The notes: generated from the sequence alone by a model not told the origin. DNA of 34,902 nt from Calditrichota bacterium (GCA_003818595.1 RPQV01000003.1:1-34902); one strand, 5' to 3'; counted from the first letter of the stretch, positions 4,272 to 32,408 are shown. Numbers and translations: made by a program.

Positions 4272-4292
4272 GCCCTTCACTCCTATCAAAAA

Positions 4293-7004: not shown

Positions 7005-7032
7005 CTGCCTTTCCTCCATTTTTATTTAATAT

Positions 7033-14203: not shown

Positions 14204-16645
14204 TCAACCCAAGATGGCTTTCACGATCACACGATCACCGCCATTTTCCAACGGAACAATATTCCCGACCACTATTTTTCCATCCACCCGCAGCGAATGC
14301 ACGCCTTTATTGATCCCTTTTGGATTTTGAATCGTGATCTCATACTCTTTACCGCGAAACTTGCGAATGACCTTGTACTCTTTCCACGCTTTGGGAATGC
14401 AGGGATCAATGACTAAACCGGTCAGTCCCGGTCGAACTCCCAGAATATATTGAGAAATGGAGACAAACGACCAGGAGGCCGTGCCGGTCAACCAGCTGTT
14501 TTTGGCCTCACCAGGAGTCGGGGCGTCTTTGCCCGCAGTCATTTGACTGTAGACATAGGGCTCCGCACGATACACTTCAATCTGGCTCTCTTTTTGCGAA
14601 GGACAAATACTCATATAATATTCAAAGGCCTGATCGCCGTGTCCCAACAAGGTTTCCGCAATTTGAATCCAGGTGTTGTTATGAGTGAAAATGCCGGCGT
14701 TTTCCTTGTACCCGGGAGGATAAGAACTGATTTCACCCAGATGCAGATGATAAGTTTGATACGCCGGTTGCTGCAGAACAATGCCGTTGGGAGTTGCCAG
14801 ATATTGATGAACACTGCGCAATGCCTGTTCCGCGTAACCATTGTCAAGACCGATCGCTCCCAAAATACACCAGGCCTGACTCTCGATAAAAATACGGCCT
14901 TCATCGTTTGTCGTGGAACCAATTTTTCTGCCCAAAGCATCAAAAGCGCGCAGGAACCATTGACCATCCCAGCCGTGCTGCAGCACGATTTGGCGCATCT
15001 CCGCTGCATGAGCGGACATTAACGACGCCTGCTGAGCATTTCCCAAATGGTTAAAAATAACTTCCAGTTCATCACAAGCCGCGCAAAACAGCCCGGCAAT
15101 CATCACCGATTCAGCTATGACGCCATGCTCGGCATCTCCGGCCAATTGAAAGCTTTCGCCCGGAGTGTCTGAAAAACAGTTTAAATTCAGACAGTCATTC
15201 CAGTCAGCATGACCAATCAACGGCAACTGGTGCGGTCCGCGATGCTGCAGAATATAATCGATGGAAATCATCAGGTGATCGAGCAGCGTCGCTGTTTTCT
15301 CCTTCAGATCGGCATAGCCGATTTTCTCGTCGAGTATGGTTGCGTCGCCCGTTTCCTTGAGATAGGCGGCCGTCGAAAGAATCAGCCACAGCGGATCATC
15401 ATTAAAGCCGCTGCCGGCATTGGCGTTGCCGATTTTTGTCAGCGGTTGATATTGGTGATAACACGTCCCGTCAGAAAGTTGTGTTGCCGCAATGTCCAAA
15501 ATCCGCTCTCTCGCTCTTTCAGGAATGATATGAACAAATCCCAGAACGTCCTGATTGCTGTCCCGATATCCCATGCCGCGACCAATTCCCGACTCGAAGA
15601 GAGAGGCCGAGCGCGACATGTTGAATGTCACCATGCATTGATACTGGTTCCACATGTTGACCATGCGGTTCACATGCTGATTTTCAGTGTTCACCTTATA
15701 GCCGGACAACAGCGAACGCCAATAGCTTTTCAATTCCTCCAGCTGCTGATCGATCAGCTTGGGCGATGCATATTTTTCAATCACACGGTAATAGGGTTCC
15801 TTGTTGATGACATGAGGTTGAATGAATTTCTTTTCCTTGGGATTCTCCGCATAGCCGAGAAGAAAATGGAGACGCTTATGTTCCCCGGGTTGAAGAGTCA
15901 GATCGATTTGATGGCCGGCGATGGGCGCCCAGCCGTAGGCGATGCTGTTGCTGCAGGCGCCGGCTTTGACCGCAGCGGGTTCATGCAGACCGTTATGCAG
16001 GCCGACGAATTGATCTCGACTGGTGTCAAATCCGGAAATGTCCTCACTGGCAGCAAAGTAGGCAAAATGGTTCCGCCGTTCACGATATTCTGTTTTATGA
16101 AAAATGGTGTTCTTTTCGACTTCCACCTGACCTATGGAAAAATTTCTCTGAAAATTGGTCTGATCATCCCAGGAATCCCAGAGACACCATTCAATGAAAC
16201 TCCAGAGGCGAATGGTTTTTGTCTTGTTGGAAAAATTTCGGCAATGCACATCCCAAATTTCCACATGTTCGGACAACGGAATAAAGTAATTGACTTCAAC
16301 GCCAAGTCCATTCTTATGTCCGCGAATGGTTGTCATTCCGGCACCGTGCCGACATTCATAATAATCGAGCGGGGTTTTCATCGGTTTCCACATCGGATTC
16401 CAAATTGTGTCGCCGTCCTTGATATAGAGATAGCGCCCATTCGCATCCATGGGGACATTGTTGTAGCGATAACGCGTCAAACGGCGCATGCGGGCGTCTT
16501 TATAAAAGCAATACCCTCCCGCGGTATTGGAAATGATGCCGAAAAATTCATGGTTTCCCAGGTAATTAATCCACGGAAGTGGAGTGTCCGGTCGTGTTAT
16601 GACATATTGTCCGTTATCATCATCAAAATGGCCAAAAGAATTCAT
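14204..16645 (-). CDS. GH94 glycoside phosphorylase (cellobiose/chitobiose phosphorylase type)
   Basis: 813 aa. MNSFGHFDDDNGQYVITRPDTPLPWINYLG...GGYCFYKDARMRRLTRYRYNNVPMDANGRYLY closely parallels the N-terminus of characterised cellobiose phosphorylases, and the length is typical (~810 aa). No signal peptide, so it is cytoplasmic. Confidence 0.9.
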   Translation of the reverse strand: MNSFGHFDDDNGQYVITRPDTPLPWINYLGNHEFFGIISNTAGGYCFYKDARMRRLTRYRYNNVPMDANGRYLYIKDGDTIWNPMWKPMKTPLDYYECRHGAGMTTIRGHKNGLGVEVNYFIPLSEHVEIWDVHCRNFSNKTKTIRLWSFIEWCLWDSWDDQTNFQRNFSIGQVEVEKNTIFHKTEYRERRNHFAYFAASEDISGFDTSRDQFVGLHNGLHEPAAVKAGACSNSIAYGWAPIAGHQIDLTLQPGEHKRLHFLLGYAENPKEKKFIQPHVINKEPYYRVIEKYASPKLIDQQLEELKSYWRSLLSGYKVNTENQHVNRMVNMWNQYQCMVTFNMSRSASLFESGIGRGMGYRDSNQDVLGFVHIIPERARERILDIAATQLSDGTCYHQYQPLTKIGNANAGSGFNDDPLWLILSTAAYLKETGDATILDEKIGYADLKEKTATLLDHLMISIDYILQHRGPHQLPLIGHADWNDCLNLNCFSDTPGESFQLAGDAEHGVIAESVMIAGLFCAACDELEVIFNHLGNAQQASLMSAHAAEMRQIVLQHGWDGQWFLRAFDALGRKIGSTTNDEGRIFIESQAWCILGAIGLDNGYAEQALRSVHQYLATPNGIVLQQPAYQTYHLHLGEISSYPPGYKENAGIFTHNNTWIQIAETLLGHGDQAFEYYMSICPSQKESQIEVYRAEPYVYSQMTAGKDAPTPGEAKNSWLTGTASWSFVSISQYILGVRPGLTGLVIDPCIPKAWKEYKVIRKFRGKEYEITIQNPKGINKGVHSLRVDGKIVVGNIVPLENGGDRVIVKAILG

Positions 16646-16692
16646 GGTGTGTCCTTTACAGATTGATCATTTTCTGTCAATGAATTGAAAAA

Positions 16693-16723
16693 TATAAAAA
16701 AAATATCCTAAATGCAATTCAGG
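16693..16723 (-). terminator. Candidate weak rho-independent terminator after the polyprenol-kinase-like gene
   Basis: The minus strand reads CCTGAA-TTGCA-TTTAGG, a 6-bp stem with one G-U pair, followed by ATATTTTTTTTATATTTTT. The stem is AT-rich. Confidence 0.3.
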
Positions 16724-16732
16724 CTTGTTAAA

Positions 16733-17437
16733 TTATGATAATAAAAGATATAAAGCCCCGGCTACGATCAACGGGACGGTCAGATTATCACTTCCTTTTG
16801 GGGAAAAAGCTTCGGCAATGGCCGCCGCTGCAGCAGCCGCCAGCGAACTGAAAACACGAAGCGAGAGGGATAGCTCAACGCCGTCCTGATTGAGAGAAGA
16901 ACTGAGTACCAGCGTCATGGTGATAAAAATGGCGATAAAACTGAACAAGAACATCGAGAGGGTTCCTTCAAGCGTACGTGAGCTCGAAAAATGACGAACT
17001 CGGCGTTTACCGTAATAAAAGCCGAATAAAGCTGCCGCGGCATCTCCCAGCGTCATCGCCATGACGGATGCCAAAGCAATAATCAAGTGAATGAGCGATC
17101 CATTTGTGCGCCAGAAAAGAAGGAACAGCAGCGTTATCGAAACAGCAAAGTATACGGTTCCGGGAGTGGCATCCTCTTCATCCATTTTCGCAAACGACCT
17201 TTTTTTGTAGAAATAATAATTTAGAACAATAAATGTGGCGAATGGAATGATGCCGATATACCAATGATCAAAGATGAAAACAATGGCCCAAACCCACATC
17301 CCGGCCGCCATGTGAATGAGTTTCCTGGTGAAAAAGGATTGCCAGTTCAATTTTTCTCCCAACTTTTCGATGGAGAATAGGAGAGAAAAGGCATACCCAT
17401 AAGATAATATTAATCCGATTGTGTCCGCTTTAGACAT
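16733..17437 (-). CDS. Polytopic membrane protein of the polyprenol/phytol kinase - cytidylyltransferase superfamily
   Basis: 234 aa with ~7 TM helices. RKLIHMAAG and GDAAAALFGFYYGKRR resemble the conserved motifs of CTP-dependent dolichol/phytol kinases and CdsA-like enzymes. Confidence 0.55.
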   Translation of the reverse strand: MSKADTIGLILSYGYAFSLLFSIEKLGEKLNWQSFFTRKLIHMAAGMWVWAIVFIFDHWYIGIIPFATFIVLNYYFYKKRSFAKMDEEDATPGTVYFAVSITLLFLLFWRTNGSLIHLIIALASVMAMTLGDAAAALFGFYYGKRRVRHFSSSRTLEGTLSMFLFSFIAIFITMTLVLSSSLNQDGVELSLSLRVFSSLAAAAAAAIAEAFSPKGSDNLTVPLIVAGALYLLLS

Positions 17438-17470
17438 AGTTCCTCAATGGTATTGGTTTATGGGCTTTAT

Positions 17471-18235
17471 TTATGCCAGGATTGAATAGCCGCCGTCAAC
17501 AACAATGGTTTGTCCCTGGATTTGTTCAGCAAATGGGCTGCACAAATATAAAACGACATTGGCAACATCTTCCGGCGTCGTCAACCGCCCCGTCGGCGTT
17601 CTTTTACTCGACTCTCCCAATAGGGAATCACGGTTGGGGAAATGTTTCAAGGCGTCTGTATCCACGACTCCGGCAGAAACGGCATTGACGCGAATTTTAT
17701 GAGGCGCCAACTCGAGCGCCAAGTGTCGAATTAACGATTCCAAAGCGGCTTTGGATGCACCCACCGCCGAATAGTTGGGAATCGCACGAACAGAACCCAG
17801 ACTCGAAACAGCAATGATGACCCCGCCATGGGTCATCAGGGGGACTGATTCCTGAGTTAAGGGCAACAAAGTGCCGGCATTGATGTTCATCGTCCATTGC
17901 CAGTGTCGCGGCGTCAATTCAAGAGCCGGTTTTAAAACCCCTGAGGCGGCATTGCTGATCAAAATATCCAACCGACCAAACGTGTTTTTGACCTGATTGA
18001 CCATGTCATGAATATTTTCTGCCTCGCCGACATTCGCGCGGATGGCGAGCGCTTTCACGCCATGGCTTTCAATCAAACTGACCGTTTCATCTGCCGCCGT
18101 CCTTTGACGGAGATAATTGATCGCCACATTGACGCCGGCTTCCGCCAAACGAATCGCGATGGCGCGGCCAATACCGCGTGATCCTCCGGTGATCAGTGCG
18201 GCTTTGCCGGTTAATGACAAACTTAAATCACTCAT
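17471..18235 (-). CDS. fabL: Enoyl-[acyl-carrier-protein] reductase FabL-type (SDR family)
   Basis: GKAALITGGSRGIGRAIA is the Rossmann motif. FGRLD..SNAASGVLKP...HWQWTMNINA...SSLGSVRAIPNYSAVGASKAALESLIRHLALELAP..IRVNAVSAGVVDTDALKHFPNRD tracks Bacillus FabL almost block for block, as far as I remember that sequence. Confidence 0.8.
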   Translation of the reverse strand: MSDLSLSLTGKAALITGGSRGIGRAIAIRLAEAGVNVAINYLRQRTAADETVSLIESHGVKALAIRANVGEAENIHDMVNQVKNTFGRLDILISNAASGVLKPALELTPRHWQWTMNINAGTLLPLTQESVPLMTHGGVIIAVSSLGSVRAIPNYSAVGASKAALESLIRHLALELAPHKIRVNAVSAGVVDTDALKHFPNRDSLLGESSKRTPTGRLTTPEDVANVVLYLCSPFAEQIQGQTIVVDGGYSILA

Positions 18236-18250
18236 CTTGATTACCCTTTT

Positions 18251-20281
18251 TCAATGAACAAACAGAATTTTATTATTGATGACGGAATTCTCTGACGACA
18301 AACGAATGAAATACAATCCGGCGGGAAGAATTCCCCCGATGTCGTCTGAACCATCCCAGGAAAGAGTCTGAATTCCAAAAGCGATACGCTGATGATACAA
18401 AATTTTAACCTTTTGTCCTAAGATATTGTATATGCTGATGTCAACGAAATGAGGAGCATCTTTTTCCGGCGCTTGAAAAATGATAGTTGTTTGCTCCCCT
18501 TTTCGAAACGGATTGGGATAATTTTGAACGAGAGCAAATGCGTCCGGCAGCAGAGCGGCAGACCCCGGCGATGCAACGATATCATATTGTTTTAACAATG
18601 CATGCTGCGGGTCGATGATGAGTTCAAGCGGCTTTTCCGTGATCTGCAGCCGAAAATGATTCAAGCGATCGGACAACCAAAGCGAATCTACAACAACAGT
18701 TGTTTTTGTTTTTATTTCAATCATCAACGGAAACGAAAATTGAAAATAGCGCCATTGCCGTTGCTCGATGTCAATTGTCATATCAAAAGCGCTATCCGCG
18801 CCGGCCGTAAAATTCCAGGAGATATCTAGATCAGGAAATCCGGGCTGATGCAGCCATTGATCGAAAAACCAGGAGAGCGAACGTCCACTCTCTTCTTCGG
18901 CGACGCTGATGAAATCTGCGGTCAAGACATTGCCATAAGCATATCGGGCGGCATAGTTCCTCAGCGTCCGCATAAAGGCATCTTGTCCAATGGTCCAACG
19001 CAGCATGTGCAGAATCCACGCCCCTTTTTGATATACTGTTGCTCCCCAAAGATAAGCCGGATTATAGACCGTAAAATGGCCTCGACGCGACACCTCCGCA
19101 AAATAGGCTTCAGCAAGATGCTCCATATAAAGAGAGAGATAATTCCCGCCATACAATGATTCGAAATAGAGCGCCTCAGAATAGGTTGCAAAGCCCTCGT
19201 TCAGCCATATATCTTTCCAATCCGCCAAGGTGACATAATTTCCCCACCAATGATGCGCAAGCTCATGTGCAACAATATATTCATACTGATTATCTCCGGT
19301 CAAGAGCTGATTGGAAAACGTGGTCAGCGTTTGATGTTCCATCGCACCACGATTATTCGCTTCGACCATTCGATAATTGGAAAAGGGATAGGGACAAAAC
19401 GCCGTTTCAAAAAAGTTCATCATGACCGCGAGATTTTTCAAATCTTTTTTAGCTTTATCAACATCATGCGGGAAAATTAAAGCCTGAATCGACAGTGAAT
19501 CACCGGAGATTGAGCGGTACGGATAGTCCAAAGTGCTGTATTCTCCAATCGCCAAGGCGATTAAATAGGGCGCAATGGGATGAACTTCGCGCCAATGAAA
19601 AATGTTACGATTTCCTTCCTGAGCAAATGAAACCAGCTCACCATTCGAGAATGCCTGCGCTGGTGTAGGAACATTGATTTGAAGGTCCAAAAGAGCTTTA
19701 TCCCAGGGTTCATCATGCGACGGAATCCAATAGCGCAGCATCGATGGCGGATAAGAATTGATGCCCTGTCCAATGGTAAAAACAGAATTATCAGTGAAAA
19801 AAAAGCCGCCGAAACCATCATTGGTTGGTGTTCCTTGATAATCGATCGCCGCCAAAATGGTGTCCGCAGGAAGGAATTTCGAAATATAAAGTTTATCGGC
19901 GGTCTGCTTAAAGGAGACCCCGTTACCGTTGATTGAAACCGCCGTCACGTTCAACTTGATCAGATCAAGATCAAATTGGGATAATTGAGTGATTGGAAAA
20001 ACAATCGTTAATAAAGCCCTGCCGGTCAACATTTTTACTGACGGTTCCACGAGCAAATCGACTTGATAATGTATAATATCGATTGAATCGTTGACCTCCC
20101 GAGAGTGAAAGGACTGAATCCCGGCTGAATGAGAATTCGGAATCGAGTGCTTTGCCTGAACCTGAGCGACCAAAAGAGAGCCAAAGCAAAAGAGCAGTAA
20201 ATGTGAATAGAGTCTCTTCAATGACGCGGATCCTTCAGTTGGGTCATGACCAAAAGAGAGATGACGATGACGCCGCTCCAT
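18251..20281 (-). CDS. M1-family zinc aminopeptidase with T9SS C-terminal sorting domain
   Basis: GAMEH (GxMEN-type), HELAHHWWGN (HExxH) and WLNEGFATY (third ligand Glu). The tail QNYPNPF...ISIYNILGQKV...AGLYFIRL...KILFVH is a T9SS CTD. The annotated ATG at 20281 gives a 22-aa non-hydrophobic leader. An in-frame TTG at 20221 would give (M)KRLYSHLLLFCFGSLLVAQVQA, a clean signal peptide. Confidence 0.85.
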   Translation of the reverse strand: MERRHRHLSFGHDPTEGSASLKRLYSHLLLFCFGSLLVAQVQAKHSIPNSHSAGIQSFHSREVNDSIDIIHYQVDLLVEPSVKMLTGRALLTIVFPITQLSQFDLDLIKLNVTAVSINGNGVSFKQTADKLYISKFLPADTILAAIDYQGTPTNDGFGGFFFTDNSVFTIGQGINSYPPSMLRYWIPSHDEPWDKALLDLQINVPTPAQAFSNGELVSFAQEGNRNIFHWREVHPIAPYLIALAIGEYSTLDYPYRSISGDSLSIQALIFPHDVDKAKKDLKNLAVMMNFFETAFCPYPFSNYRMVEANNRGAMEHQTLTTFSNQLLTGDNQYEYIVAHELAHHWWGNYVTLADWKDIWLNEGFATYSEALYFESLYGGNYLSLYMEHLAEAYFAEVSRRGHFTVYNPAYLWGATVYQKGAWILHMLRWTIGQDAFMRTLRNYAARYAYGNVLTADFISVAEEESGRSLSWFFDQWLHQPGFPDLDISWNFTAGADSAFDMTIDIEQRQWRYFQFSFPLMIEIKTKTTVVVDSLWLSDRLNHFRLQITEKPLELIIDPQHALLKQYDIVASPGSAALLPDAFALVQNYPNPFRKGEQTTIIFQAPEKDAPHFVDISIYNILGQKVKILYHQRIAFGIQTLSWDGSDDIGGILPAGLYFIRLSSENSVINNKILFVH

Positions 20282-21009: not shown

Positions 21010-22770
21010 TTAAAATTCATTGACCAGCCCGACGTGTAAAAGACCACTCATGACTCCCTGTTTTTCTCCATAGGCGAGGCCATAATCAATGCCCATGATT
21101 CCCAAACCGGTCTCCAGTCGCACTCCAAAACCATACCCAATCTTGAGCGCATGTGCAGAATTCATATAGTTATTTTCATAATATCCGACATCAACAAACG
21201 TGAACGCCCGCGATCGTCTGCCCATGATATAACGATATTCTGCATTGATCCAGGCGATGATTGAACCTCTAAATTGATCTTCTCGATACCCGCGCAGACT
21301 TTTTGTACCACCCAGGCGAAATAAATCGGATATGGGAATTCGTTTTTCGGAACTGATGAGTTGCCTTCCATGCAAAGACATGCTCAACAGTTGTCGTTTG
21401 AACGTGGGAATAAAAAAATCAAGATCGAGAACAAGGCGTTTATGATTTACTTTTTTCTCAATCGACAACAGGTCGATCAGATCCGGCGGTCCAAGATTGC
21501 TTTTCCGCCCGGTTTCTAAACTGGTAAAATAATAGAGCCCTTTTTGAGGATTCAAGAGATCATCGCGAGAATCAAATGAAAGCCCAATACTCGTGCTGAG
21601 AGAGGAACTCTTGGGAATGGCCAGAGAATAACTGGCTGAAGAATCGGGAAGGATGCTGCTTTTTCTGAGAGCGGCGATGATGGAAAAATTCTCCAGCAGA
21701 GGAAGCTGCAGATCCAGTCCGACTTGACGTTCAATATAAGAAGAATCTTGAATCAGTTGCTGAAATCCGAAACCGGCGTTTACCGGATATCCGGCGATCC
21801 AGGGTTCAAGATAATGAAACAGCAAATCCTGCGACGCGCGATCCCGCTTCTGCCAATGAGCGAGAATTGAACGTCCCGAACCAAACAGATTGCCCAGTTT
21901 GATATCGATCAGACCGGTGAAATATCCTTTTTCCTCACCCGTCCCCGGCGTATAGCCTACGACGCCGTCGAAACGACTATTGCCGGCTTCCTGGAGCTTT
22001 ATGAGCAAACCGCCTTCCTGTTCCGTGGCTAAAAATATCTCCGGCGGAAGAACGTGATGAAAAAGTCCCAGGCGCATGAGCCGGGACTGGATTTTTGAAA
22101 ACTTTTGATAATTGAACGCCTCGCCTTCTTTGATGCGGATTTCACGAAGAATGACTTTTTTCAGCGTCACTTCATTACCGATAATTTGAATTTCCTTCAA
22201 AATGGGCTGCGGACCCTTGACCACTTTATAATGAAAATTCACCGCCTCTTTCTGAGACGAGGATGAATCCAATTGAATCGATTGCAGAACCAGCTGCACA
22301 AAAGGATAGCCCTTTTTTTCAAAGGATGTAACCGAGTCTTCCAATTTTTCATCAAGGCGATTGACATTGAGTGATTTTCCAGAGGGAATATCGATCAGAT
22401 CATCAAGGTCCTGTACCTCCTGCTCCGTCAATCCGCTAAAGGAGACGGCGCCGGTCACCAATTGTGAGCCCTCATTCAGGTAAAGCGATAGAGAAACATC
22501 AAGGCTGTCGGAACCCTGGCGAAAAATCAACGAGTCAATTCTGGCATACGGAAAGCCGGCTTTGGCGTACTCCTGCAGGAGCCTGGTACAATTTTTGGGC
22601 AGATCATCCGGATTGAATGGAGTGTTTTTATCGATGGCAAACCATTGTTTCAATAAAGAAGAGGAAATAATCTGATTCCCACTGAAATCGATCTGTTGAA
22701 TGATCGGTTTTTCTGCGGCAAAAATGCGTCCGAAAGGAAACATGAAAAGAAGAATCAAACCATATTTCAT
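21010..22770 (-). CDS. Omp85/BamA-TamA-family outer-membrane protein (short form, ~3 POTRA-like repeats + barrel)
   Basis: Signal peptide MKYGLILLFMFPFGRIFAAE. POTRA-like segments include IQQIDFSGNQIISSSLLKQWF and IQIIGNEVTLKKVILREIRIKEGEAFN. The barrel carries RLGGTKSLRGYREDQF and ends in ...GLVNEF. It starts 3 nt after the stop of the 1139-aa gene. Confidence 0.85.
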   Translation of the reverse strand: MKYGLILLFMFPFGRIFAAEKPIIQQIDFSGNQIISSSLLKQWFAIDKNTPFNPDDLPKNCTRLLQEYAKAGFPYARIDSLIFRQGSDSLDVSLSLYLNEGSQLVTGAVSFSGLTEQEVQDLDDLIDIPSGKSLNVNRLDEKLEDSVTSFEKKGYPFVQLVLQSIQLDSSSSQKEAVNFHYKVVKGPQPILKEIQIIGNEVTLKKVILREIRIKEGEAFNYQKFSKIQSRLMRLGLFHHVLPPEIFLATEQEGGLLIKLQEAGNSRFDGVVGYTPGTGEEKGYFTGLIDIKLGNLFGSGRSILAHWQKRDRASQDLLFHYLEPWIAGYPVNAGFGFQQLIQDSSYIERQVGLDLQLPLLENFSIIAALRKSSILPDSSASYSLAIPKSSSLSTSIGLSFDSRDDLLNPQKGLYYFTSLETGRKSNLGPPDLIDLLSIEKKVNHKRLVLDLDFFIPTFKRQLLSMSLHGRQLISSEKRIPISDLFRLGGTKSLRGYREDQFRGSIIAWINAEYRYIMGRRSRAFTFVDVGYYENNYMNSAHALKIGYGFGVRLETGLGIMGIDYGLAYGEKQGVMSGLLHVGLVNEF

Positions 22771-22773
22771 AGA

Positions 22774-25700
22774 TCACCGAAAAGCAGCCGTGATTTGAGC
22801 CCTTCCAGTATGGATGACTCCATGACGTTCAGGCTCATTGCGACCATTATAAGAAAGCGTGGCCTGCATGACTTCAGAAATTCGATAATCGAAACGAATA
22901 TCCACGCGAAATGATTTTCCCGCAGAACGTCCGTTGGCCATCTCGTACGGCAAAATTCTGTCGGATGGATTCACCTTGACAAAGCTCCATTCAAACTCTC
23001 CTCTCACTCGGCCCTTGTTCTTGATCGAATAGGTCATCTGCGGAATGACGGCAAACGACTGAACTTTGGTCGGCAGCAGGTAATATAAATCTTTTTCGAG
23101 GGAAAAACGACCCTCTAATGATAATTTAATGATCGAGACGGGAGTGATGGAAATATCCGAGTTGATCTTCAGAGAGTGAATGTCTCGGTTTTGTTTTCCT
23201 TGATAATTGAAAAATCGTGCAGTGCGGCTGTTCGTTACCTCGGATTGGGAATTGACCTTTTCAGAAAAGCGAGTCGTCACTCGGGCAGAATATTCCTCTT
23301 CTTCTCTTTTTTCACCGCCTTCGAGAAATTGATTATTCAATTCGTCGCGCGAAGCGTAACGAAGGCGGAGCGAAAAATCTCGACTGCGTTCAAACAAGTA
23401 TAAATCCTGACGAAACTGCAGAGTGCCGAAAATTGTCTCTCCGGGAGAACGGAATTTTGAGAGTTTGAGCAGATAGATGTCGTTGACAGATTTGCGCTGA
23501 GTTCGTTCCTCGATGGTGACAAAAGATTCGGTGGATAAGGCTTTGACAACAGAATTCCAGAGCGGGCCTTTCTCCGAAGAGGAGTTTTTAAAGAAATTGG
23601 TTGGTTCCAGCCGCAGACGACCGCTTGTTTTTAATTCCACGGTGGGTATGAATTGATCTGTTGTTAGAATCCGCAGAATGTGATCACCAAGAGGATCATA
23701 AACATACTCCTTCAATTCTTCATCATAGCGATAATTGCCTTCGCCTTCGGGAACTGAAATATATACTTTTTCTTTGAGTGCCGTTGCGGTGTTGGCAATC
23801 TGATAATTCATGTTTGCATTAATAGCGCGATTGAACGGAATCAGTTGAGTGCGCAATTCCGCCAGATCAGTGCGGGAGTTTTCCATATTCGGCGAAGCAA
23901 AGGTCTTTACCCGATGCGTTAAATCGATGGAGGTCGTCCAAATTTTGAACCGCTCCAATAGAATTTGCATATTTTGTGTCTTGGCCAACGATTTTTCCGT
24001 GAATTGCTCAAAAGCAGTATACTCTTTATCTTTGCGTTGAGAATATTCACCGCTGATTTTCACCTTTGAAAAGGGCTCGAAAGAGAGTCCGGTTTTTAGG
24101 TCGTCAAATTTGAATCCGGTGAATAAAGAGTCAGACCAATTTTCCTTTTTTATTTCTCCTTCATATCGAATCATGGGGGAGAGGCGCCAAAAAGTCCATT
24201 GGACATCCCCCATTTGTCTCAGCCAGTCCGCCGATTGTTTGACAGCAGGGGATTCGCGCTCTATTTTCTCCAACCGATAACTTGTTTTGGGGAGTTTCCC
24301 CCAATTCAATGATTGCTCAAATTGCTTCCTCGAAGAGTAAAAGCTATCGCCTTTTTTAATCGAACCCCATTCTGTCGCCAAATGAAATCCGGTAAAAGGT
24401 TCATAGCTTGTTCTAAATTCTTTGACGAGCTCCTGTCGCGAGGCGGCGGCGGAGATATCCCATCTGCGATTGTATTCAACCTCGGTGGTGCGGTCGATAT
24501 CGGTAAATTGGTCGTCAATGGTTTTGTAGCGTCCTACAAGACCGATTTTCCCCAGGTTGAATCGACCGATACGCAGATGGGGCGGTTTAAATGAAAGTTC
24601 ATAGTTTTGAGCCAGCCCCTGATTATCCTGATCATCCACATTGGAAAAGCTGTTGACATCAAAAAAACTGAACGCCGTCTCGCCTTTCAAATTGATAAAA
24701 CTGAGCGGAGATGCATCGGCAAAGAAATTGATCATATTATGAGATTTTGGCAGGGGCAAAAGAATGACCGGAGCATATCTGCCTTTCCTGATGCCGACAA
24801 ATTCAAAAATGGCGTTCCCTTTATATTCATAATCGCCGTTCATGCTGCCGACATCCGAAAAGGTTATCAAATATTCACCCTGGTTCTCGCCCGCATATTT
24901 ATAATGATCATTTTCTTTCGTATAACGGCCATTCTGCGGGCCGACATAATTGGCTCCATTGATAACCGCTTTGGTGAGATCGTCTCCGGCGGCGGATAAT
25001 ATCGTTTGATAATCATCAGTCAATGTAAAGTCGAGCGGATTGTTTTTATCATCGGCTTCATGCAAAAAGAGCGAGCGCAGTTTAACTTTACTTTTCCAAA
25101 GATCAGCCGCCACTGAGGCGGAGTAAAGGTTTCTGCGATATTGTTCATCAGAATATTGAAAATCAATCGTGATGCGCGAATCAGAGGTGATCAGCCGTTT
25201 GCGGGTAAACGTGATTTGAGCGGATGAATAATCTATGGTATAATCATTGGTTTCGCCGCGGATCATCGCTTCGCCGTCAATAAAGACGCGTTCAGTTCCT
25301 GCCAGAACGATAATGTCGATTTGACCGCGATCTCCTTTGAGCTGATACGGACCTTGATTTCCCTCTTGTCCGGTGAACGCCATTGAATAATACTTTCCCC
25401 GCGACACAGCGGCTGATGCTTTTGCCGAAATATTTTTATAGGCAGTTTCCCCTAAAACGCCCTGAAGCTTTCGGTTATATCTGGACAACTCGGTTTCTGA
25501 ATATTCAATCTGAAAATCTCCCAGGGTTGTTGAAAATGAGGGAGATTTGATTTGAATGAAAACCTTGTCAATTTCCTGTAGGTTCTGAGTAGTGCCGTCC
25601 GGCTGAATGGGGGTCGTTTGATCTGTCAAAGCCGCAATCACTTCCACCTGTTCACCGACTTTGCCCGCAACATTGATATTCAAGGCCGAATTTACCTTTA

Positions 25701-26193
25701 AGCCGCGGTTAGAGCCGACGGTCACTCCGCGGGTGATGCTCCCGCTTTTTGAAAGTTTGGACGCATAATCTTCTTCGCCTGCCTGGTCTGCCGGAGCGTT
25801 AACGTCCTGCATCAGCGCCGGCGCGCCGAAAACGCGATGCAGTATTTGGCGATGAAAGACCGACTTTTTGAGCGGGAAAGGGAATACCTTGTAATTGATG
25901 CGAATTTCAACTTCTTTGGCGACGGACTCTTCGAATCGAAGTTCACCACGAATATAGTCAAGAGAATAAGCGGAGGATTGCAGTTTGCTGTCGTTCAGAT
26001 AGACCGTTTCCGAATGTTCGATGATCAGGCTGTCTGGAAGGAGATAAGGCCCGCGACGGTCTTCACCCAATATGACAAAATCTTTTTCATACAGTCGTAT
26101 GTTTTCCAATTTTCCTTTGCTTTGCGAAAAAAGGAGAGTCGAAAAAATAAAAAAAAGGAAATAGGATTTATAAAGCAAAGGATTCACCAACAA
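22774..26193 (-). CDS. 1139-aa hypothetical secreted protein, predicted giant outer-membrane beta-barrel; no recognisable domain
   Basis: Uninterrupted ORF with a TTG start and the signal-like N-terminus LVNPLLYKSYFLFFIFSTLLFSQS. Composition is beta-rich with alternating hydrophobicity throughout. The C-terminal strands IRFDYRISEVMQATLSYNG...HTGRAQITAAFR look like an OMP beta-signal. I recognised no OstA, AsmA/DUF490, POTRA or catalytic motifs. Confidence 0.75.
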   Translation of the reverse strand: MLVNPLLYKSYFLFFIFSTLLFSQSKGKLENIRLYEKDFVILGEDRRGPYLLPDSLIIEHSETVYLNDSKLQSSAYSLDYIRGELRFEESVAKEVEIRINYKVFPFPLKKSVFHRQILHRVFGAPALMQDVNAPADQAGEEDYASKLSKSGSITRGVTVGSNRGLKVNSALNINVAGKVGEQVEVIAALTDQTTPIQPDGTTQNLQEIDKVFIQIKSPSFSTTLGDFQIEYSETELSRYNRKLQGVLGETAYKNISAKASAAVSRGKYYSMAFTGQEGNQGPYQLKGDRGQIDIIVLAGTERVFIDGEAMIRGETNDYTIDYSSAQITFTRKRLITSDSRITIDFQYSDEQYRRNLYSASVAADLWKSKVKLRSLFLHEADDKNNPLDFTLTDDYQTILSAAGDDLTKAVINGANYVGPQNGRYTKENDHYKYAGENQGEYLITFSDVGSMNGDYEYKGNAIFEFVGIRKGRYAPVILLPLPKSHNMINFFADASPLSFINLKGETAFSFFDVNSFSNVDDQDNQGLAQNYELSFKPPHLRIGRFNLGKIGLVGRYKTIDDQFTDIDRTTEVEYNRRWDISAAASRQELVKEFRTSYEPFTGFHLATEWGSIKKGDSFYSSRKQFEQSLNWGKLPKTSYRLEKIERESPAVKQSADWLRQMGDVQWTFWRLSPMIRYEGEIKKENWSDSLFTGFKFDDLKTGLSFEPFSKVKISGEYSQRKDKEYTAFEQFTEKSLAKTQNMQILLERFKIWTTSIDLTHRVKTFASPNMENSRTDLAELRTQLIPFNRAINANMNYQIANTATALKEKVYISVPEGEGNYRYDEELKEYVYDPLGDHILRILTTDQFIPTVELKTSGRLRLEPTNFFKNSSSEKGPLWNSVVKALSTESFVTIEERTQRKSVNDIYLLKLSKFRSPGETIFGTLQFRQDLYLFERSRDFSLRLRYASRDELNNQFLEGGEKREEEEYSARVTTRFSEKVNSQSEVTNSRTARFFNYQGKQNRDIHSLKINSDISITPVSIIKLSLEGRFSLEKDLYYLLPTKVQSFAVIPQMTYSIKNKGRVRGEFEWSFVKVNPSDRILPYEMANGRSAGKSFRVDIRFDYRISEVMQATLSYNGRNEPERHGVIHTGRAQITAAFR

Positions 26194-26209
26194 TCTTTTT
26201 GCACAAGGA

Positions 26210-27118
26210 TTACCAATTCAAATCAAAAGCTTGGATACGGTGATTATTGGTATCAACCACAAAAAGCTGATGATTAAAAACCGCCACATCAGACGGTTCG
26301 CTGAAAGCACCCAGTTTAGCACCGGAAGAACCAAAATTGAAATAAAGATCTCCAGAGGCGTCAAAACAAAAGATTTGATCGAGGCCCGCGTCAGCGACAA
26401 AAAGCCGCTGAGCCGAATCAATGAATAAGCCTTTAGGTTTTTTCAATTGATTCAGTCCAATGTCGCGAATGTAATTGCCGAAATAGTCATAAACCAGCAC
26501 TTTCCCGGCAGCCGAATCAGATACATATATAAAATCATGAGAGTCACAAAAAATCGAAAAGGCTTCACGGATGGTTCCGCTTCCCCAGTCAAAATCACCA
26601 AAACTTAATTCAGGTTGAAAGCTGGAATTGAGTTTGACGATTTTATCGTGTTCTGCGTCAGCAATCATAAAGTCACCATGAATGCTGATAAAGAGAGAGC
26701 GCGGGAAGAAAAACTGATATCGTTCATCCCAGGAAATATCAGAACGATAACTGGACAGCCAATTCAGGTCTTTATCGTAGCGTTCGATGCGGTTGTTTTC
26801 ATAGTCGGCCACGAAAACATCGAGAGAATTATAAACGAAAACATCAGCGGGATAATGAAATTGGCCTTGACCCCAACCAAAGCCGCCGATGAAGGCGACC
26901 AGTTCTCCTTTGTTGGTGAATTTTTGCAGGCGATTATTACCTTGATCAGCAATATATAGATTTCCCTGGGCGTCGGCTGATAATGCCGTCGGAGCAATGA
27001 ACTGCCCGGGTTTGCCGCCTTCCTCGCCGAACGAAAAGCTGAATCGGGGAATTATAACGTCCTGAGCTAAAGAAAATGAATTATAAAAGAAACAGAAGAG
27101 CCATAATAAACGTTTCAT
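26210..27118 (-). CDS. NHL-repeat six-bladed beta-propeller protein, secreted
   Basis: The ATG at 27118 gives the signal peptide MKRLLWLFCFFYNSFSLAQD. Repeated blade motifs: GNNRLQKF, ENNRIERY, EHDKIVKL, AGKVLVY, LDQIFCF and NNHRIQAF. Confidence 0.8.
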   Translation of the reverse strand: MKRLLWLFCFFYNSFSLAQDVIIPRFSFSFGEEGGKPGQFIAPTALSADAQGNLYIADQGNNRLQKFTNKGELVAFIGGFGWGQGQFHYPADVFVYNSLDVFVADYENNRIERYDKDLNWLSSYRSDISWDERYQFFFPRSLFISIHGDFMIADAEHDKIVKLNSSFQPELSFGDFDWGSGTIREAFSIFCDSHDFIYVSDSAAGKVLVYDYFGNYIRDIGLNQLKKPKGLFIDSAQRLFVADAGLDQIFCFDASGDLYFNFGSSGAKLGAFSEPSDVAVFNHQLFVVDTNNHRIQAFDLNW

Positions 27119-27169: not shown

Positions 27170-27661
27170 TCATCTTCTTCTGCTTTTCAACATTATGCGT
27201 TCATCAGGATAAACGACCCTATGGTAGCTGCGGTTCATATTTTTGCATTTTCGCCAACGTTCATATGCTTCGATCACGTCATTATCGTTTCGGGATAACT
27301 CCTGGATGCGCAGGTTGGACAATTTTAATCCATTCGAAGCTTTTTCATCCATAAGGATACGGTCCAAGAGAAAAAATTGGCGCGGTGAAAGATTTGCCTT
27401 GATGAATGTATTGTTATTAGGATCAGTGTCGTAAAAATAATCCATTTGTGTATTTTGGGAACGAAAACAGTAATTACGCACAAATTTTTTCACTTCGGCC
27501 CGCTTATAGAATGTGAATGCAGCCAGCGCGAGTAGAACCAGATAGAGCATGAAATTTTGAGGCTTATTCTTTAGAAATTTGCTAACATAATAGAGGATCA
27601 CCACAAAGACAGCAGCAAGAAGAATGAAGCATGTAGGATTGAGTGATTTCAACATTGACAT
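27170..27661 (-). CDS. Hypothetical 2-TM membrane protein with cytoplasmic C-terminal domain
   Basis: The track ORF is 27170..27733. The ATG at 27661 follows AGGTGG and removes the overlap with the divergent NlpC/P60 gene. Low GC, no recognised family. Confidence 0.5.
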   Translation of the reverse strand: MSMLKSLNPTCFILLAAVFVVILYYVSKFLKNKPQNFMLYLVLLALAAFTFYKRAEVKKFVRNYCFRSQNTQMDYFYDTDPNNNTFIKANLSPRQFFLLDRILMDEKASNGLKLSNLRIQELSRNDNDVIEAYERWRKCKNMNRSYHRVVYPDERIMLKSRRR

Positions 27662-28521: not shown

Positions 28522-28869
28522 TTGAGTCCATACAATCTACCCAAAAAAATCATTCTTAAAACGAATATTGAATTTAGTGACACTATTCATCACGGAAGGT
28601 GTTTCAGGAATGACTATTTTACGATCTTCTGTTCGCGTGCAGACGAGTTGAGAATTGGATTCACAGTCAAAAATGATATCGCCTCAAAACCCCAACGAAA
28701 CTTTTTAAAACGAAGAATGCGCGAAATTTTCAGATTGTGTTTTCGAAACTATCGTCTGCCGGCAGAAATCGTGATGATCGCCCAAAGATCGGTTGAAACG
28801 GCCGATTTTACGCAATTGGAGCAGACCCTAAACCATACCTTGAACCAAATCGAAAAATGGTTAAATTGA
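28522..28869 (+). CDS. rnpA: Ribonuclease P protein component
   Basis: 115 aa, basic, immediately after rpmH. LPKKIILKTNIEFSDTIHHGRCFRNDYFTIF matches the RnpA N-terminal pattern (LxKxxRLxxxxxFxxV...). TTG start. Confidence 0.8.
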   Translation: MSPYNLPKKIILKTNIEFSDTIHHGRCFRNDYFTIFCSRADELRIGFTVKNDIASKPQRNFLKRRMREIFRLCFRNYRLPAEIVMIAQRSVETADFTQLEQTLNHTLNQIEKWLN

Positions 28870-28889
28870 AATCAGAGTGACGGCATCAT

Positions 28890-29144
28890 TTGTTTTTTCA
28901 TAAAGCAAAACAAACCATTCAACTGGCTGATCACACTATCGGAAAGATATTGATCGTATTCGTACGATTCTATCAACTCGTTCTTTCCCCACTATTTGCA
29001 AAATCATGTCGTTTTCATCCCTCTTGTTCAGCCTATTGCATCCAGGCCATAACGAAATACGGGGCGCTGAAAGGATTGCTCAAGGCGGGATGGAGAATTC
29101 TCAGATGTAATCCTCTTTCACCCGGAGGCTATGACCCTGTTTAA
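28890..29144 (+). CDS. yidD: Membrane protein insertion efficiency factor YidD
   Basis: [58 protein letters not shown] is the canonical YidD core. The TTG start is uncertain. Confidence 0.85.
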
Positions 29145-29158
29145 AAAAAGAGATATTT

Positions 29159-30931
29159 ATGGATTTTGACAAAAGGACCATCTTTGCTTTTGTACTCATT
29201 GGATTGATTCTCATTCTGATCAATACCGGATTTTATCAAAAAATAGTCGATCCGAAAGGATACGAACAGCGACAACTGCAACGCACGCAAAGAGTGGAGC
29301 AAGGCGCTGTTGAACCGCGCGGACCGGCGATCCAACCCCGGGAATCCTCTCCTGCCATAGAGAATAGTGACCAAGATTTTAGCCCGGTCAAAAAGACTCC
29401 TGGTATCGAGGTTCCCGATTCACTGGGTGAGAAAAAGATCACTATCCAAACAAGCCTCTATAAAGCGACAATGACTTCCAAGGGCGCCACGATATTGCAG
29501 TGGAGTCTGCTCAACTATCTTGGCACCGACAAAGAACCGGTAGAATTATTTACCGAGAATTCCTACAACAATCTCGTTGTCGGATTCAATACCAAAGCCG
29601 GCGACAGCCTGACCACCGGGGATTATCATTTTATGGTCGACTCTCCTGAAGAGATCAAATTGTCCGCTCAACAGGAATTTGTCCTCAAATTTACGCTTCC
29701 TTTGGGTGAAAATCGTGAGATTGAAAAAATATACACCTTTCGTGATGGAACCTATGACGTTTCTCTGTTAATTAATTTCAAAAATCTCAATCAGTTAATC
29801 GATGATAAGCAATATTATCTGCTCGCTCCAAACGGCCTTGCCTCAACTGAAAAGAACATGAAAGACGAAATGACCTATACCAAAGCCGGAACGTCTGCAG
29901 GCGGTGAGACCAAAAAAGATTACAAGGCTGATGACAAGGCGAAAAAAGTGGCTGCCGACTTGGACTGGGTTGCGGTAAGAAACAAGTACTTTGCCTTTTA
30001 TATTTTACCCAGAAATCGAAACAGCCAATATGCCGAAATATTAGGTACGCAAATTGCGCAAAACCGCACCGATAAAGTGAAATGGAAAAAATACAGCCTC
30101 AAACTGGCCATGCCCTTTTTGGGTGAAAGCAATGTCAAGGATGAATACACCCTCTTTATTGGACCCATGGAATATGGACTGCTCAAATCCTATAAAAAGG
30201 ATATGCAGGATTTTTTGGATATGGGTGCAAAAATTATTAAACCCTTCAGCATCGCTATTTTGATTACCTTCAAATGGATGCATACCTTCATTTCCAATTA
30301 TGGCGTGATCCTGCTGATCTTCTCTTTGCTCATCAAGGTTTTAACCTACCCGCTCACATTGAAGAGCTATGAATCGATGCAGAAAATGCAGACGCTGCAG
30401 CCTAAATTGAAGGAACTGCAGGATAAGTATCGCAGCGATCCGCAAAAGCTCAACCAAATGACCATGACGCTCTATAAAGAGCAGGGCGTCAATCCCATGG
30501 GCGGCTGCCTGCCGATGCTGCTGCAGATGCCCCTGCTGTTTGGTTTGTTCATCGTCTTCAGAACAACCATTGATTTGCGCGGTCAGGGATTTATCTGGTG
30601 GATCAATGATCTTTCGGCGCCGGATACTATTTTCACCTTTCCGGGAAATTTTGCATTGCCCATTTACGGAAACACCGTCAATATTTTGCCGATTTTAATG
30701 GGCGTCACCATGTTCATTCAGCAAAAGATGTCGATCACTGATCCGAAACAGAAATTCATGATCTATTTTATGCCCATCTTTTTTACGCTCTTGTTCAATA
30801 GCTTTCCCTCGGGATTAAATCTATATTATGCTCTCTTTAACATTCTGTCGATTGTACAGCAAAAGTATTTGACGCCCAAGAAACCTGAAACGGCCCTGGC
30901 GACAACCAGCAAAAGAAAACGACGCATCTAG
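29159..30931 (+). CDS. yidC: Membrane protein insertase YidC
   Basis: 590 aa. N-terminal TM helix, large periplasmic domain, then the conserved C-terminal core (LLIKVLTYPLTLKSYESMQKMQ..LQPKLKELQDKY..., NPMGGCLPMLLQMPLLFGLF, GLNLYYALFNILSIVQQ). Confidence 0.9.
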   Translation: MDFDKRTIFAFVLIGLILILINTGFYQKIVDPKGYEQRQLQRTQRVEQGAVEPRGPAIQPRESSPAIENSDQDFSPVKKTPGIEVPDSLGEKKITIQTSLYKATMTSKGATILQWSLLNYLGTDKEPVELFTENSYNNLVVGFNTKAGDSLTTGDYHFMVDSPEEIKLSAQQEFVLKFTLPLGENREIEKIYTFRDGTYDVSLLINFKNLNQLIDDKQYYLLAPNGLASTEKNMKDEMTYTKAGTSAGGETKKDYKADDKAKKVAADLDWVAVRNKYFAFYILPRNRNSQYAEILGTQIAQNRTDKVKWKKYSLKLAMPFLGESNVKDEYTLFIGPMEYGLLKSYKKDMQDFLDMGAKIIKPFSIAILITFKWMHTFISNYGVILLIFSLLIKVLTYPLTLKSYESMQKMQTLQPKLKELQDKYRSDPQKLNQMTMTLYKEQGVNPMGGCLPMLLQMPLLFGLFIVFRTTIDLRGQGFIWWINDLSAPDTIFTFPGNFALPIYGNTVNILPILMGVTMFIQQKMSITDPKQKFMIYFMPIFFTLLFNSFPSGLNLYYALFNILSIVQQKYLTPKKPETALATTSKRKRRI

Positions 30932-30954
30932 TCTCGATTGACATGCAAACATCA

Positions 30955-30991
30955 CCCCGTCCGTTTTATAAAGCGGCGGGGTTTTTATTTT
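30955..30991 (+). terminator. Rho-independent terminator after yidC
   Basis: CCCCGTC (30955-30961) pairs with GGCGGGG (30975-30981), a 7-bp stem with one G-U pair, followed by TTTTTATTTT (30982-30991). Confidence 0.6.
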
Positions 30992-30996
30992 AAGGT

Positions 30997-32373
30997 ATGG
31001 AAACAGATACCATCACAGCCATAGCGACGCCTGCCGGAAAAGGGGCAATCTCCGTGATCAGAGTGAGCGGAGATCGAGCGTTTACGACGGTCGAAGATTT
31101 TTTTGACGGCAAAAAAGCTGTTCAAGACATGAAACCGAACAGCACCGCTGTCGGCCTGTTCAAGCCGGATAAATCGCAGTCGGCGTTCATCGATCAGGTC
31201 ATCCTCACCAAATATGTCAAACCCCGCTCCTATACCGGCGAAGACCTCATTGAGATCAGCTGCCACGGCAGTGTTTATATCGTACAGGAAATATTAAATC
31301 TTTTGCTGAGCGGAGGCATACGCCTGGCTGAAGCGGGAGAATTTACCAAACGAGCCTTCCTGAACGGCAAGATGGACTTGACTCAGGCGGAATCGGTCGC
31401 CGATATCATCAATGCTCAAACACAAAAGAGCCTGGAATATGCCCAGGCGCAGGCGAATGGAAGTCTGTACAGTGATCTGGCTGCTATCAGAGAGATATTG
31501 AAAAAGCACCTGATCATGCTGGAAATCGAACTCGACTTTTCCGATGAAGACGTGGAGAAGCAAGATCGATCGCAAATCATGGAGGGTCTGAACCGGCTGG
31601 AAGAGGAAATGAATCGCCTGGTCAGCACCTTTCATTTCGGCAAATTGATCAGAGAAGGCATGCATTTGGTTCTTACCGGTAAACCGAACGTTGGAAAATC
31701 GAGCATTTTAAATCGTTTCTTAAATGAAGATCGCGCCATTGTTTCTGAAATTCCTGGCACGACGCGGGACACCATCGAAGAGTCGCTGACCATTGACGGA
31801 TATCTGTTCAAAATATCCGACACTGCCGGCTTAAGGTCAAGCCAGGACCGGCTGGAGATCTCAGGTGTGGAAAGAACCAAGAAGCAAATCCAAATGGCGG
31901 ATTTCATTTTATTCGTCATTGATGGACATAAAAAATTGACCGTTGAGGACTATGAGAGCCTCTCCGCGGTTCGTCAATTAAGTCGGCATAAGAAAGCGCT
32001 GCTCATCAATAAGGCGGATTTAAAATCCGCCGATATTGATCCGGATTTTAAAACATCCTTCGACCGCTGCGTCGCGGTCTCGGCCAGGACGGGAATGGGT
32101 TTCGAAGCATTGCGTAAACTTTTGGTTGAAGAAATCGAGAACGATCAGGTTCAACATTCAGCGGTGATCAATCGAGTCCGACATCTCGATGTCTTGAAGA
32201 GGACGCAGCAATACATTGATCATGCGCGCGAATCTTTGACCAGGGGATTCAGTGCGGAATTCATCGCTTTCGACATCAGAGCCGCCCTCAATACCGTCGG
32301 AGAATTGATCGGCGAGGTTTCTTCCAACGATATTTTGAATGAAATCTTTTCCGCATTCTGCATTGGCAAGTGA
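30997..32373 (+). CDS. mnmE: tRNA modification GTPase MnmE (TrmE)
   Basis: TITAIATPAGKGAISVIRVSG. G-domain motifs GKPNVGKSS, DTAGLR and NKADL. C-terminal ...FCIGK tetrapeptide. Confidence 0.95.
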   Translation: METDTITAIATPAGKGAISVIRVSGDRAFTTVEDFFDGKKAVQDMKPNSTAVGLFKPDKSQSAFIDQVILTKYVKPRSYTGEDLIEISCHGSVYIVQEILNLLLSGGIRLAEAGEFTKRAFLNGKMDLTQAESVADIINAQTQKSLEYAQAQANGSLYSDLAAIREILKKHLIMLEIELDFSDEDVEKQDRSQIMEGLNRLEEEMNRLVSTFHFGKLIREGMHLVLTGKPNVGKSSILNRFLNEDRAIVSEIPGTTRDTIEESLTIDGYLFKISDTAGLRSSQDRLEISGVERTKKQIQMADFILFVIDGHKKLTVEDYESLSAVRQLSRHKKALLINKADLKSADIDPDFKTSFDRCVAVSARTGMGFEALRKLLVEEIENDQVQHSAVINRVRHLDVLKRTQQYIDHARESLTRGFSAEFIAFDIRAALNTVGELIGEVSSNDILNEIFSAFCIGK

Positions 32374-32374
32374 G

Positions 32375-32389
32375 TGTTTCACGTGGAAC
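32375..32389. promoter_or_regulatory. 15-nt CACGTG-centred near-palindrome TGTTTCACGTGGAAC, starting 2 nt after the mnmE stop
   Basis: Read directly. It is the exact reverse complement of 34298-34312. Confidence 0.4.
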
Positions 32390-32408
32390 GTATTGATTGA
32401 AGAACATC

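Follow-up and report, generated by a model that had tools for sequence, protein, structure and literature searches.

A conserved gene trio for an NHL propeller, a predicted giant outer-membrane barrel and a short BamA-type Omp85 protein in Calditrichota and related bacteria

The largest outer-membrane barrel identified by the time of a 2020 review was SprA (also named Sov), the 36-stranded pore of type IX secretion. SprA pairs alternately with a barrel partner, PorV, and with a periplasmic plug (PMC7463736). It was reported in all phyla of the Fibrobacterota-Chlorobiota-Bacteroidota (FCB) group but Chlorobiota (PMC12611786). A role in building complex outer-membrane proteins, SprA among them, has been connected with the barrel-assembly machinery (BAM) recently described in Bacteroidota. 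In the TamA-TamB system (with TamL in Bacteroidota and Chlorobiota), which is thought to aid the assembly of particular outer-membrane proteins, a three-POTRA Omp85 protein is encoded beside a very large partner. The large barrel LptD is co-encoded with LptE, a small periplasmic or lumenal partner, and needs an Omp85 protein for its insertion. Here we analyzed a stretch of 34,902 nucleotides (nt) from a Calditrichota bacterium (GCA_003818595.1, RPQV01000003.1:1-34902), referred to as the window; all coordinates count from its first letter. It carries three adjacent minus-strand genes for an NHL propeller, a protein of 1139 amino acids (aa) and an Omp85 protein of 586 aa. This trio fully matches none of the known systems, and SprA, BamA/BAM, TamA-TamB and LptD-LptE each resemble it in one respect.

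According to the list of open reading frames (ORFs) the trio is composed as follows:

26210..27118, minus strand: NHL propeller gene, 302 aa from a likely ATG at 27118; the ORF reaches 27127
22774..26193, minus strand: giant barrel gene, 1139 aa, TTG start
21010..22770, minus strand: Omp85 gene, 586 aa, ATG start

The spacers are 16 nt between the NHL and barrel genes (26194..26209) and 3 nt between the barrel and Omp85 genes (22771..22773), as had been stated in the initial annotation. All three products start with a signal-peptide-like segment. The database gene call for the barrel protein (P0001, 1111 aa) begins 28 codons downstream of the start of the long ORF. Since homologs align across the hydrophobic N-terminus, the longer ORF of 1139 aa is to be preferred. 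The closest homologs of this protein came from candidate division KSB1.

The conservation of the trio was analyzed in a genome collection containing one genome per species. Relatives of the barrel protein were found in at least 528 species; the best 80 loci were kept and approximately 15-23 kb were read around each trio. The presence of a gene was scored by tblastn with the window proteins, and the denominators are the loci with enough flanking DNA:

NHL gene upstream of the barrel gene: 68 of 78 loci
Omp85 gene downstream of the barrel gene: 55 of 65 loci
Full trio: 53 of 63 species-level loci

The initial annotation had made its proposal depend on synteny of the trio across FCB relatives, and such synteny was found, in at least two unrelated genomic contexts. 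The trio was maintained down to approximately 33-35% identity. Two homologs on long contigs (L001 and L002, 56% and 44% identical) showed the same order of NHL gene, large protein and Omp85 among other neighbours. Identity to the window barrel protein tracked identity to the window Omp85 (r = 0.96) and to the NHL protein (r = 0.87), which is explained in part by shared phylogeny.

Clustering of every ORF in the loci left the NHL, barrel and Omp85 genes as the only widely kept ones. In the window-type context, genes for a TRAM methyltransferase, an NlpC/P60 protein and a small membrane protein are located upstream of the trio. In the second context the trio is preceded by rplM-rpsI-rpsB-tsf-pyrH-frr and followed by UbiA-dtd-maf. 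This second context was present in one KSB1/Calditrichota-type branch (loci L027-L041, L053, L068 and L079; for example L030, 867..4636). In total, 13 loci had the trio directly after rpsB-tsf-pyrH-frr. Because the core of three genes is kept while its genomic context changes, the trio can be regarded as functionally linked. There is good evidence that it is a real module and that the arrangement is not due to chance.

The 1139-aa protein matched no Pfam or NCBIfam family above threshold. When 1.84 billion cluster representatives were searched with a profile, 4401 members of its family were returned at E<1e-3, of which 2310 reached E<1e-30. The named members originated from genome bins of KSB1, Calditrichota, Zhuqueibacterota, Ignavibacteriota, Chloroherpetonaceae, Latescibacterota and 'Bacteroidota', and all of them were annotated as 'hypothetical'. 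A homolog search starting from a relative labelled 'Bacteroidetes' returned only uncultured Ignavibacteriae/Bacteroidota bins, again all 'hypothetical', and no cultured host.

A first AlphaFold2 run with 49 close homologs reached a pLDDT of 76 and a pTM of 0.53, with low confidence in the most conserved region, and the resulting model gave generic barrel matches only. It was superseded by a second model based on a diverse alignment of 65 sequences down to 26% identity (model id mb75af9d3c359; pLDDT 88.2, pTM 0.76). In this model a small beta-sandwich and a disordered linker are followed by an uninterrupted series of long strands, with inserts at aa 275-339, 387-483, 560-587, 863-885, 899-919 and 1076-1091. 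Counted from the DSSP list of the model, there are approximately 40 consecutive long strands, exactly 40 if aa 212-231 are taken as one strand. As this number is even, both termini of the barrel would be periplasmic. The parts of the protein are:

22780..25758, minus strand: predicted barrel proper (aa 146-1138), approximately 40 long beta-strands according to the DSSP list, ending in ...AQITAAFR
25885..26088, minus strand: N-terminal small beta-sandwich domain (aa 36-103), five short strands, pLDDT 86-92, with a motif common to SprA and phage tail proteins
25114..25773, minus strand: most conserved region (aa 141-360), with the first 9 or so barrel strands, a conserved loop and a second sandwich insert

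The conserved loop, TDQ.TPIQP(E/D)G.TQ.LQEIDK, is located at aa 190-210 and the second small sandwich insert at aa 275-339. Most of the invariant residues of the family lie within aa 141-360, where the column information was 2.1-3.2 bits in most 20-residue windows (1.8 bits in one) compared to approximately 1.0-2.3 bits elsewhere. The C-terminus (...GRAQITAAFR; family consensus ...GRAExRAxF) corresponds to a typical C-terminal signal of outer-membrane proteins. The protein is thus predicted to be a single-chain outer-membrane beta-barrel with approximately 40 strands, belonging to an unnamed FCB-wide family. A domain-less, barrel-like protein with a signal peptide and a C-terminal ...AQITAAFR had been described in the initial annotation, and this description was borne out.

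The two small sandwich domains (aa 57-102 and 311-347) additionally gave sub-threshold matches to models of phage distal-tail and tail-tube proteins (DUF2460, TIGR02217 and NF052337) as well as to SprA. In the window protein the DUF2460 match covers aa 57-102, and the NCBI name 'DUF2460 domain-containing' of at least one homolog derives from a match of the sandwich domain. The resemblance to phage tails probably reflects a shared small fold with no phage link.

The trio had initially been thought to match no described system. For the barrel family, however, SprA turned out to be the nearest known relative. The four best of five Foldseek matches of the second model among solved structures were SprA entries (8GL6, 8GL8, 6H3I and 6H3J; E 1.8e-10 to 1e-8), ranking ahead of TonB-dependent receptors and LptD. 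Furthermore, 23 of 42 diverse family members matched the NCBIfam SprA model TIGR04189, with a best E of 1.7e-11. These matches always ran through a motif of approximately 50 residues in the two small sandwich domains, at model positions of about 597-655. The relatives reached at most about 46 bits, compared to a cut-off of 200 bits, over approximately 45-55 residues of a model with about 2300 positions. Direct sequence searches of solved structures, with the family profile and with a relative that matches the SprA model, returned nothing meaningful and no SprA.

SprA is a giant single-chain outer-membrane barrel restricted to FCB phyla; the trio protein is predicted to be one as well, its family is likewise confined to these phyla, and the small-sandwich motif is common to the SprA model and the 23 family members mentioned above. 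However, the trio barrel has a length of only about 1140 aa, compared to about 2300-2400 aa for SprA, and it lacks the large extracellular cap, whereas its predicted strand number of about 40 exceeds the 36 of SprA. The partners differ as well, being an NHL propeller and an Omp85 protein in the trio but PorV, Plug, PPI and SprE in the case of SprA. In our reading the predicted barrel would be a cap-less, half-length and distant relative of SprA that forms a family of its own and is not a SprA ortholog.

The barrel could also be the divergent LptD of this lineage or a TamB-type partner in lipid transport, with the propeller taking the place of LptE. LptD structures were among the Foldseek matches, and a large barrel with a small co-encoded periplasmic partner recalls LptD-LptE. 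However, there is no sequence similarity and no specific similarity in fold. No match to LptD, LptD_2, OstA (PF03968, PF04453, PF19838), AsmA, DUF490/TamB or the two-partner secretion (TPS) domain was found in the window protein or its 49 relatives; a TamB/AsmA-like or TpsA-like identity had already been argued against in the initial annotation. With the better model, the TM-scores for LptD were 0.12-0.16, and LptD ranked below SprA and the TonB-dependent receptors. Also, far more strands are predicted for the trio barrel than the 26 of LptD, its modelled N-terminal domain is a small sandwich without a long jellyroll bridge, and its partner is a soluble propeller rather than a lipoprotein. We therefore consider a lipid-transport identity highly improbable.

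The product of the upstream gene was recognised by the Pfam NHL family (PF01436; 76.6 bits, cut-off 20, E 7.8e-22), whose repeats fill the protein of about 300 aa. The best matching solved structures were six-bladed TRIM-NHL propellers with E of approximately 1e-36 to 3e-36. The protein carries a type I signal peptide (MKRLLWLFCFFYNSFSLA, with QD after the cleavage site) and no lipobox, and its orthologs likewise have type I signal peptides and no conserved lipobox cysteine. These features point to a soluble periplasmic six-bladed NHL propeller, in line with the secreted six-bladed propeller proposed at the outset. A reading of the protein as a BamB-like lipoprotein was ruled out by the missing lipobox.

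The third gene product showed Pfam matches to Omp85 (residues 294-572) and POTRA. Two features of it are listed here:

21010..22770, minus strand: Omp85 gene, encoding a signal peptide, three POTRA domains (about aa 24-290) and a barrel of the 16-strand type (about aa 294-586) that ends in ...VGLVNEF
21286..21297, minus strand: loop-6 motif L492-R493-G494-Y495, the (V/I/L)RG(F/Y) signature of active Omp85 barrels

Across 39 orthologs R493 and G494 were invariant and L492 and Y495 nearly so, and the C-terminal residue is a phenylalanine (...NEF). The BamA equivalog model TIGR03303 aligned with 179.6 bits (E 9.5e-53) at model positions 146-726 of 741 and thus did not reach its cut-off of 297.15 bits. 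As the alignment starts only at position 146, POTRA1 and POTRA2 are absent; there is no room for them behind the signal peptide, so the protein does not have the five POTRA domains of BamA. In solved structures, residues 24-335 align with POTRA3-5 and the start of the barrel of BamA. Scores of other models were lower, with 31.7 bits for TamA (NF047950, cut-off 625) and 14.3 bits for TamL. A profile of the 39 orthologs gave the following scores against solved structures:

Neisseria and E. coli BamA: 140-150 bits
Flavobacterium BamA: 123 bits
TamA: at most 55 bits

The protein is therefore, as judged from its sequence, a BamA-type Omp85 with three POTRA domains (the equivalents of POTRA3-5) and a minimal barrel of about 295 aa. 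The initial annotation had proposed a short Omp85 of the TamA/TpsB type; the short Omp85 of 586 aa was confirmed, whereas the assignment to TamA/TpsB was not, as the sequence is BamA-type. Only the number of three POTRA domains is as in TamA.

Compared to BamA and BAM, the trio Omp85 shares the BamA-type sequence, the intact loop-6 RGY motif and the C-terminal phenylalanine. An Omp85 next to another barrel protein also has a precedent in the Bacteroidota-type BAM, where BamA is combined with the FadL-like barrel BamG and the BamH canopy (PMC12611786). However, the trio protein has three POTRA domains instead of five, lacks the extracellular pillar and stays under the equivalog cut-off, and it is encoded beside the giant barrel and the NHL propeller rather than beside uppS and skp. 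TamA-TamB is similar with respect to a three-POTRA Omp85 encoded beside a very large partner. Here, the difference lies in the partner, which is predicted to be an integral outer-membrane barrel in the trio, whereas TamB (DUF490) is anchored in the inner membrane and spans the periplasm. In contrast to TamL, the trio Omp85 has no lipobox.

An Omp85 next to two proteins with signal peptides could likewise belong to a system resembling two-partner secretion, in which it would carry to the cell surface either the NHL propeller or the large protein's N-terminal domain. Besides the adjacency of the genes and these signal peptides, a weak match to ShlB (PF03865, E 0.0013) is consistent with such a system. 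However, this match reached only 18.7 bits compared to a cut-off of 22.7 bits, and three POTRA domains were found instead of two. Moreover, neither neighbour contains a TPS domain or filamentous-haemagglutinin repeats, and the large protein itself is predicted to form an integral barrel whose C-terminus carries an insertion signal. Export of this kind is very unlikely.

Our main reading, to which we assign a probability of roughly 0.45, is that the trio encodes one outer-membrane module. Its giant barrel would be a gated channel with the propeller as a partner on the periplasmic side, and the Omp85 would be dedicated to the barrel, either inserting it or remaining alongside it. The barrel would form a wide channel that needs a gate, because approximately 40 strands joined by short loops would enclose a very wide pore. 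The propeller might dock at the periplasmic mouth of the barrel as a plug or adaptor, by analogy to Plug on SprA or LptE in LptD. The short Omp85 would be a specialised BamA paralog that inserts the unusually large barrel by recognising its conserved C-terminal ...RAxF signal, and it may remain with the barrel at its seam. Most simply, the adjacent three-POTRA Omp85 would thus be a specialised insertase or seam partner for the oversized barrel.

Several observations weigh against this reading. The barrel gene lacked an adjacent NHL gene in 10 loci and an adjacent Omp85 gene in 10 loci, which were mostly the same ones. Solitary barrel genes were present among unrelated housekeeping genes in Ignavibacteriota-type, 'Bacteroidota'-labelled and some KSB1 genomes. 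It follows that assembly of the barrel is not universally dependent on an adjacent dedicated Omp85. The initial annotation had regarded the 1139-aa protein as the dedicated partner of this Omp85; since its family is large, FCB-wide and solitary in some genomes, this claim did not stand. The neighbours of the solitary genes (KdpA, UvrD, acetyl-CoA synthetase, UvrC, MurJ, metallophosphoesterase and others) gave no functional hint. Two loci of Calditrichaceae (L070 and L082) carried the NHL gene, and in L070, with enough downstream DNA, no Omp85 gene followed at the trio position. Furthermore, the Foldseek TM-scores to SprA were only 0.21-0.27 at a sequence identity of 7-9%, the link to SprA on the sequence level is limited to the motif of about 50 residues, and the window protein itself had no TIGR04189 match at E<=0.01.

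A further point against a dedicated insertase is the position of the trio behind rplM-rpsI-rpsB-tsf-pyrH-frr in the 13 loci mentioned above, which echoes the order rpsB-tsf-pyrH-frr-dxr-uppS-cdsA-rseP-bamA of E. coli. It suggests that the Omp85 could be the housekeeping BamA, cut to three POTRA domains. The barrel and propeller would then be merely conserved envelope genes sharing its operon, with no dedicated insertase link. The scores against hidden Markov models are far nearer to BamA than to TamA or TpsB, several orthologs were named BamA by IMG, and no second Omp85 was found in any of the 82 loci, in the 15-23 kb or so read around each trio. In addition, the equivalents kept are those of POTRA3-5, the functionally important POTRA domains of E. 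coli BamA. A homolog search with the Omp85 returned, among the matches listed, only orthologs of approximately 590 aa.

Against a housekeeping BamA, the score of 179.6 bits remains below the equivalog cut-off, and the name given to the orthologs by NCBI is 'BamA/TamA family'. The minimal barrel of approximately 295 aa has no room for the extracellular pillar of BamA, to which the BamG/BamH canopy attaches; this canopy was reported in six of seven other FCB phyla, including Caldithrix (PMC12611786). Caldithrix, of the related phylum Calditrichota, has BamA together with the BamG/BamH system (PMC12611786, supplementary table 1). In Bacteroidota, bamA is flanked by uppS and skp (PMC12773653), whereas tblastn revealed no uppS next to the trio in any locus. 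The E. coli proteins UppS, CdsA, RseP, Skp, LpxD, FabZ and LpxA, used as tblastn queries, gave no match in the window or the 82 loci, although E. coli Skp is probably too divergent for its negative result to count. Moreover, several Omp85 paralogs are usual in FCB genomes (PMC4104836). Taken together, we regard the housekeeping BamA as the main rival explanation, although as an unlikely one.

Another possibility is that the three proteins form a stable hetero-complex acting as an alternative secretion pore related to type IX, in which the barrel would be the channel, the propeller its gate and the Omp85 a permanent lateral subunit instead of an assembly factor. SprA is the nearest match in structure as well as in motif, and SprA switches between two partners, PorV and a periplasmic plug (PMC7463736). 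Type IX secretion operates in the organism, as indicated by a protein with a C-terminal sorting domain (18251..20281) and by PorV near the trio in L002, and genes with sorting domains are often located just downstream of the trio (family 6). However, the number of these genes near the trio is close to chance expectation by our estimate, and they lie inside inherited synteny. Since SprA is reported in all FCB phyla but Chlorobiota (PMC12611786), full-length SprA probably coexists with the trio barrel. The barrel family was also found in Chloroherpetonaceae, which belong to Chlorobiota, the phylum reported to be without SprA (PMC12611786). Such a pore therefore seems improbable to us, less so than lipid transport or two-partner secretion.

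The sorting-domain proteins encoded one to two genes downstream of the trio comprise an M1 aminopeptidase in the window (18251..20281, minus strand) and, in L001, a PQQ propeller and a beta-lactamase-like protein (15753..19211 and 21421..22857). Genes of this kind were present near the trio in 13 related loci (family 6). As this is about the number expected by chance, no conclusion was drawn.

The trio of the window is located in an ordinary chromosomal setting, with rnpA-yidD-yidC-mnmE-mnmG on the opposite strand. The NlpC/P60 gene is divergent from the trio cluster, and downstream of the trio the window contains genes for a SpoU methylase, the M1 peptidase with the type IX sorting domain and FabL. 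Scans of the trio region for Rfam families, tRNAs, repeats, promoters and terminators revealed nothing relevant. One additional gene is co-directional with the trio:

27170..27661, minus strand: small predicted membrane protein gene, likely ATG at 27661, ORF extending to 27733, located 51 nt upstream of the NHL gene

Its product had no Pfam or NCBIfam match above threshold. By tblastn a homolog was found upstream of the NHL gene in approximately 25 loci, all of them among the closest, whereas the distant loci had none; a stricter clustering of gene families recovered it in 17 loci (family 5). This distribution is that of an accessory gene of some lineages, apparently outside the core, and the protein may be a lineage-specific fourth component.

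Elsewhere in the window, three co-directional minus-strand genes (729..8856) encode products of 1186, 908 and 607 aa. The 1186-aa protein belongs to no Pfam family, and its C-terminal tail only faintly matches a type IX sorting-domain-like sequence (PorZ model, E 0.003). The 908-aa product is a barrel similar to TonB-dependent receptors with a CarboxypepD_reg domain, and that of 607 aa is a GDSL-lipase/TPR protein. These genes may represent another cluster for outer-membrane or secreted proteins. The set rnpA-yidD-yidC-mnmE-mnmG, which is often close to the replication origin, spans 28522..34295 on the plus strand; the window contains no dnaA and no clear switch in GC skew. A gene for a GH94 phosphorylase of the cellobiose/chitobiose type (14204..16645, minus strand) is overlapped by an antisense ORF of 485 aa (15209..16666, plus strand), which is almost certainly spurious.

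The literature searched contained no description of such a trio, of a BamA of KSB1, of 40-stranded barrels or of SprA-like paralogs of this kind. For the trio as a whole this is in agreement with the initial annotation, which had proposed a type that matches no described system. A wider proposal, which we put forward only as speculative and rather doubtful, is that the family represents an undescribed FCB-wide class of channels with a barrel of approximately 40 strands, larger than SprA. In lineages of the KSB1/Calditrichota type these channels would be gated by the NHL propeller and built by their own three-POTRA Omp85.

If this holds true, the trio would represent a new translocon together with a new dedicated branch of the barrel-assembly machinery. 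Thousands of FCB genomes would then carry an unnamed channel wider than any solved single-chain barrel, which in one large branch has its own Omp85. If the short Omp85 is instead the only BamA, this FCB lineage would possess a BamA with just three POTRA domains, in itself an unusual case. With its three proteins the trio offers a concrete target for multimer modelling and cryo-EM. It bears on the insertion of very large barrels into the outer membrane and on the evolution of SprA, the pore of type IX secretion, to which the barrel family looks like a cap-less relative of half the length.

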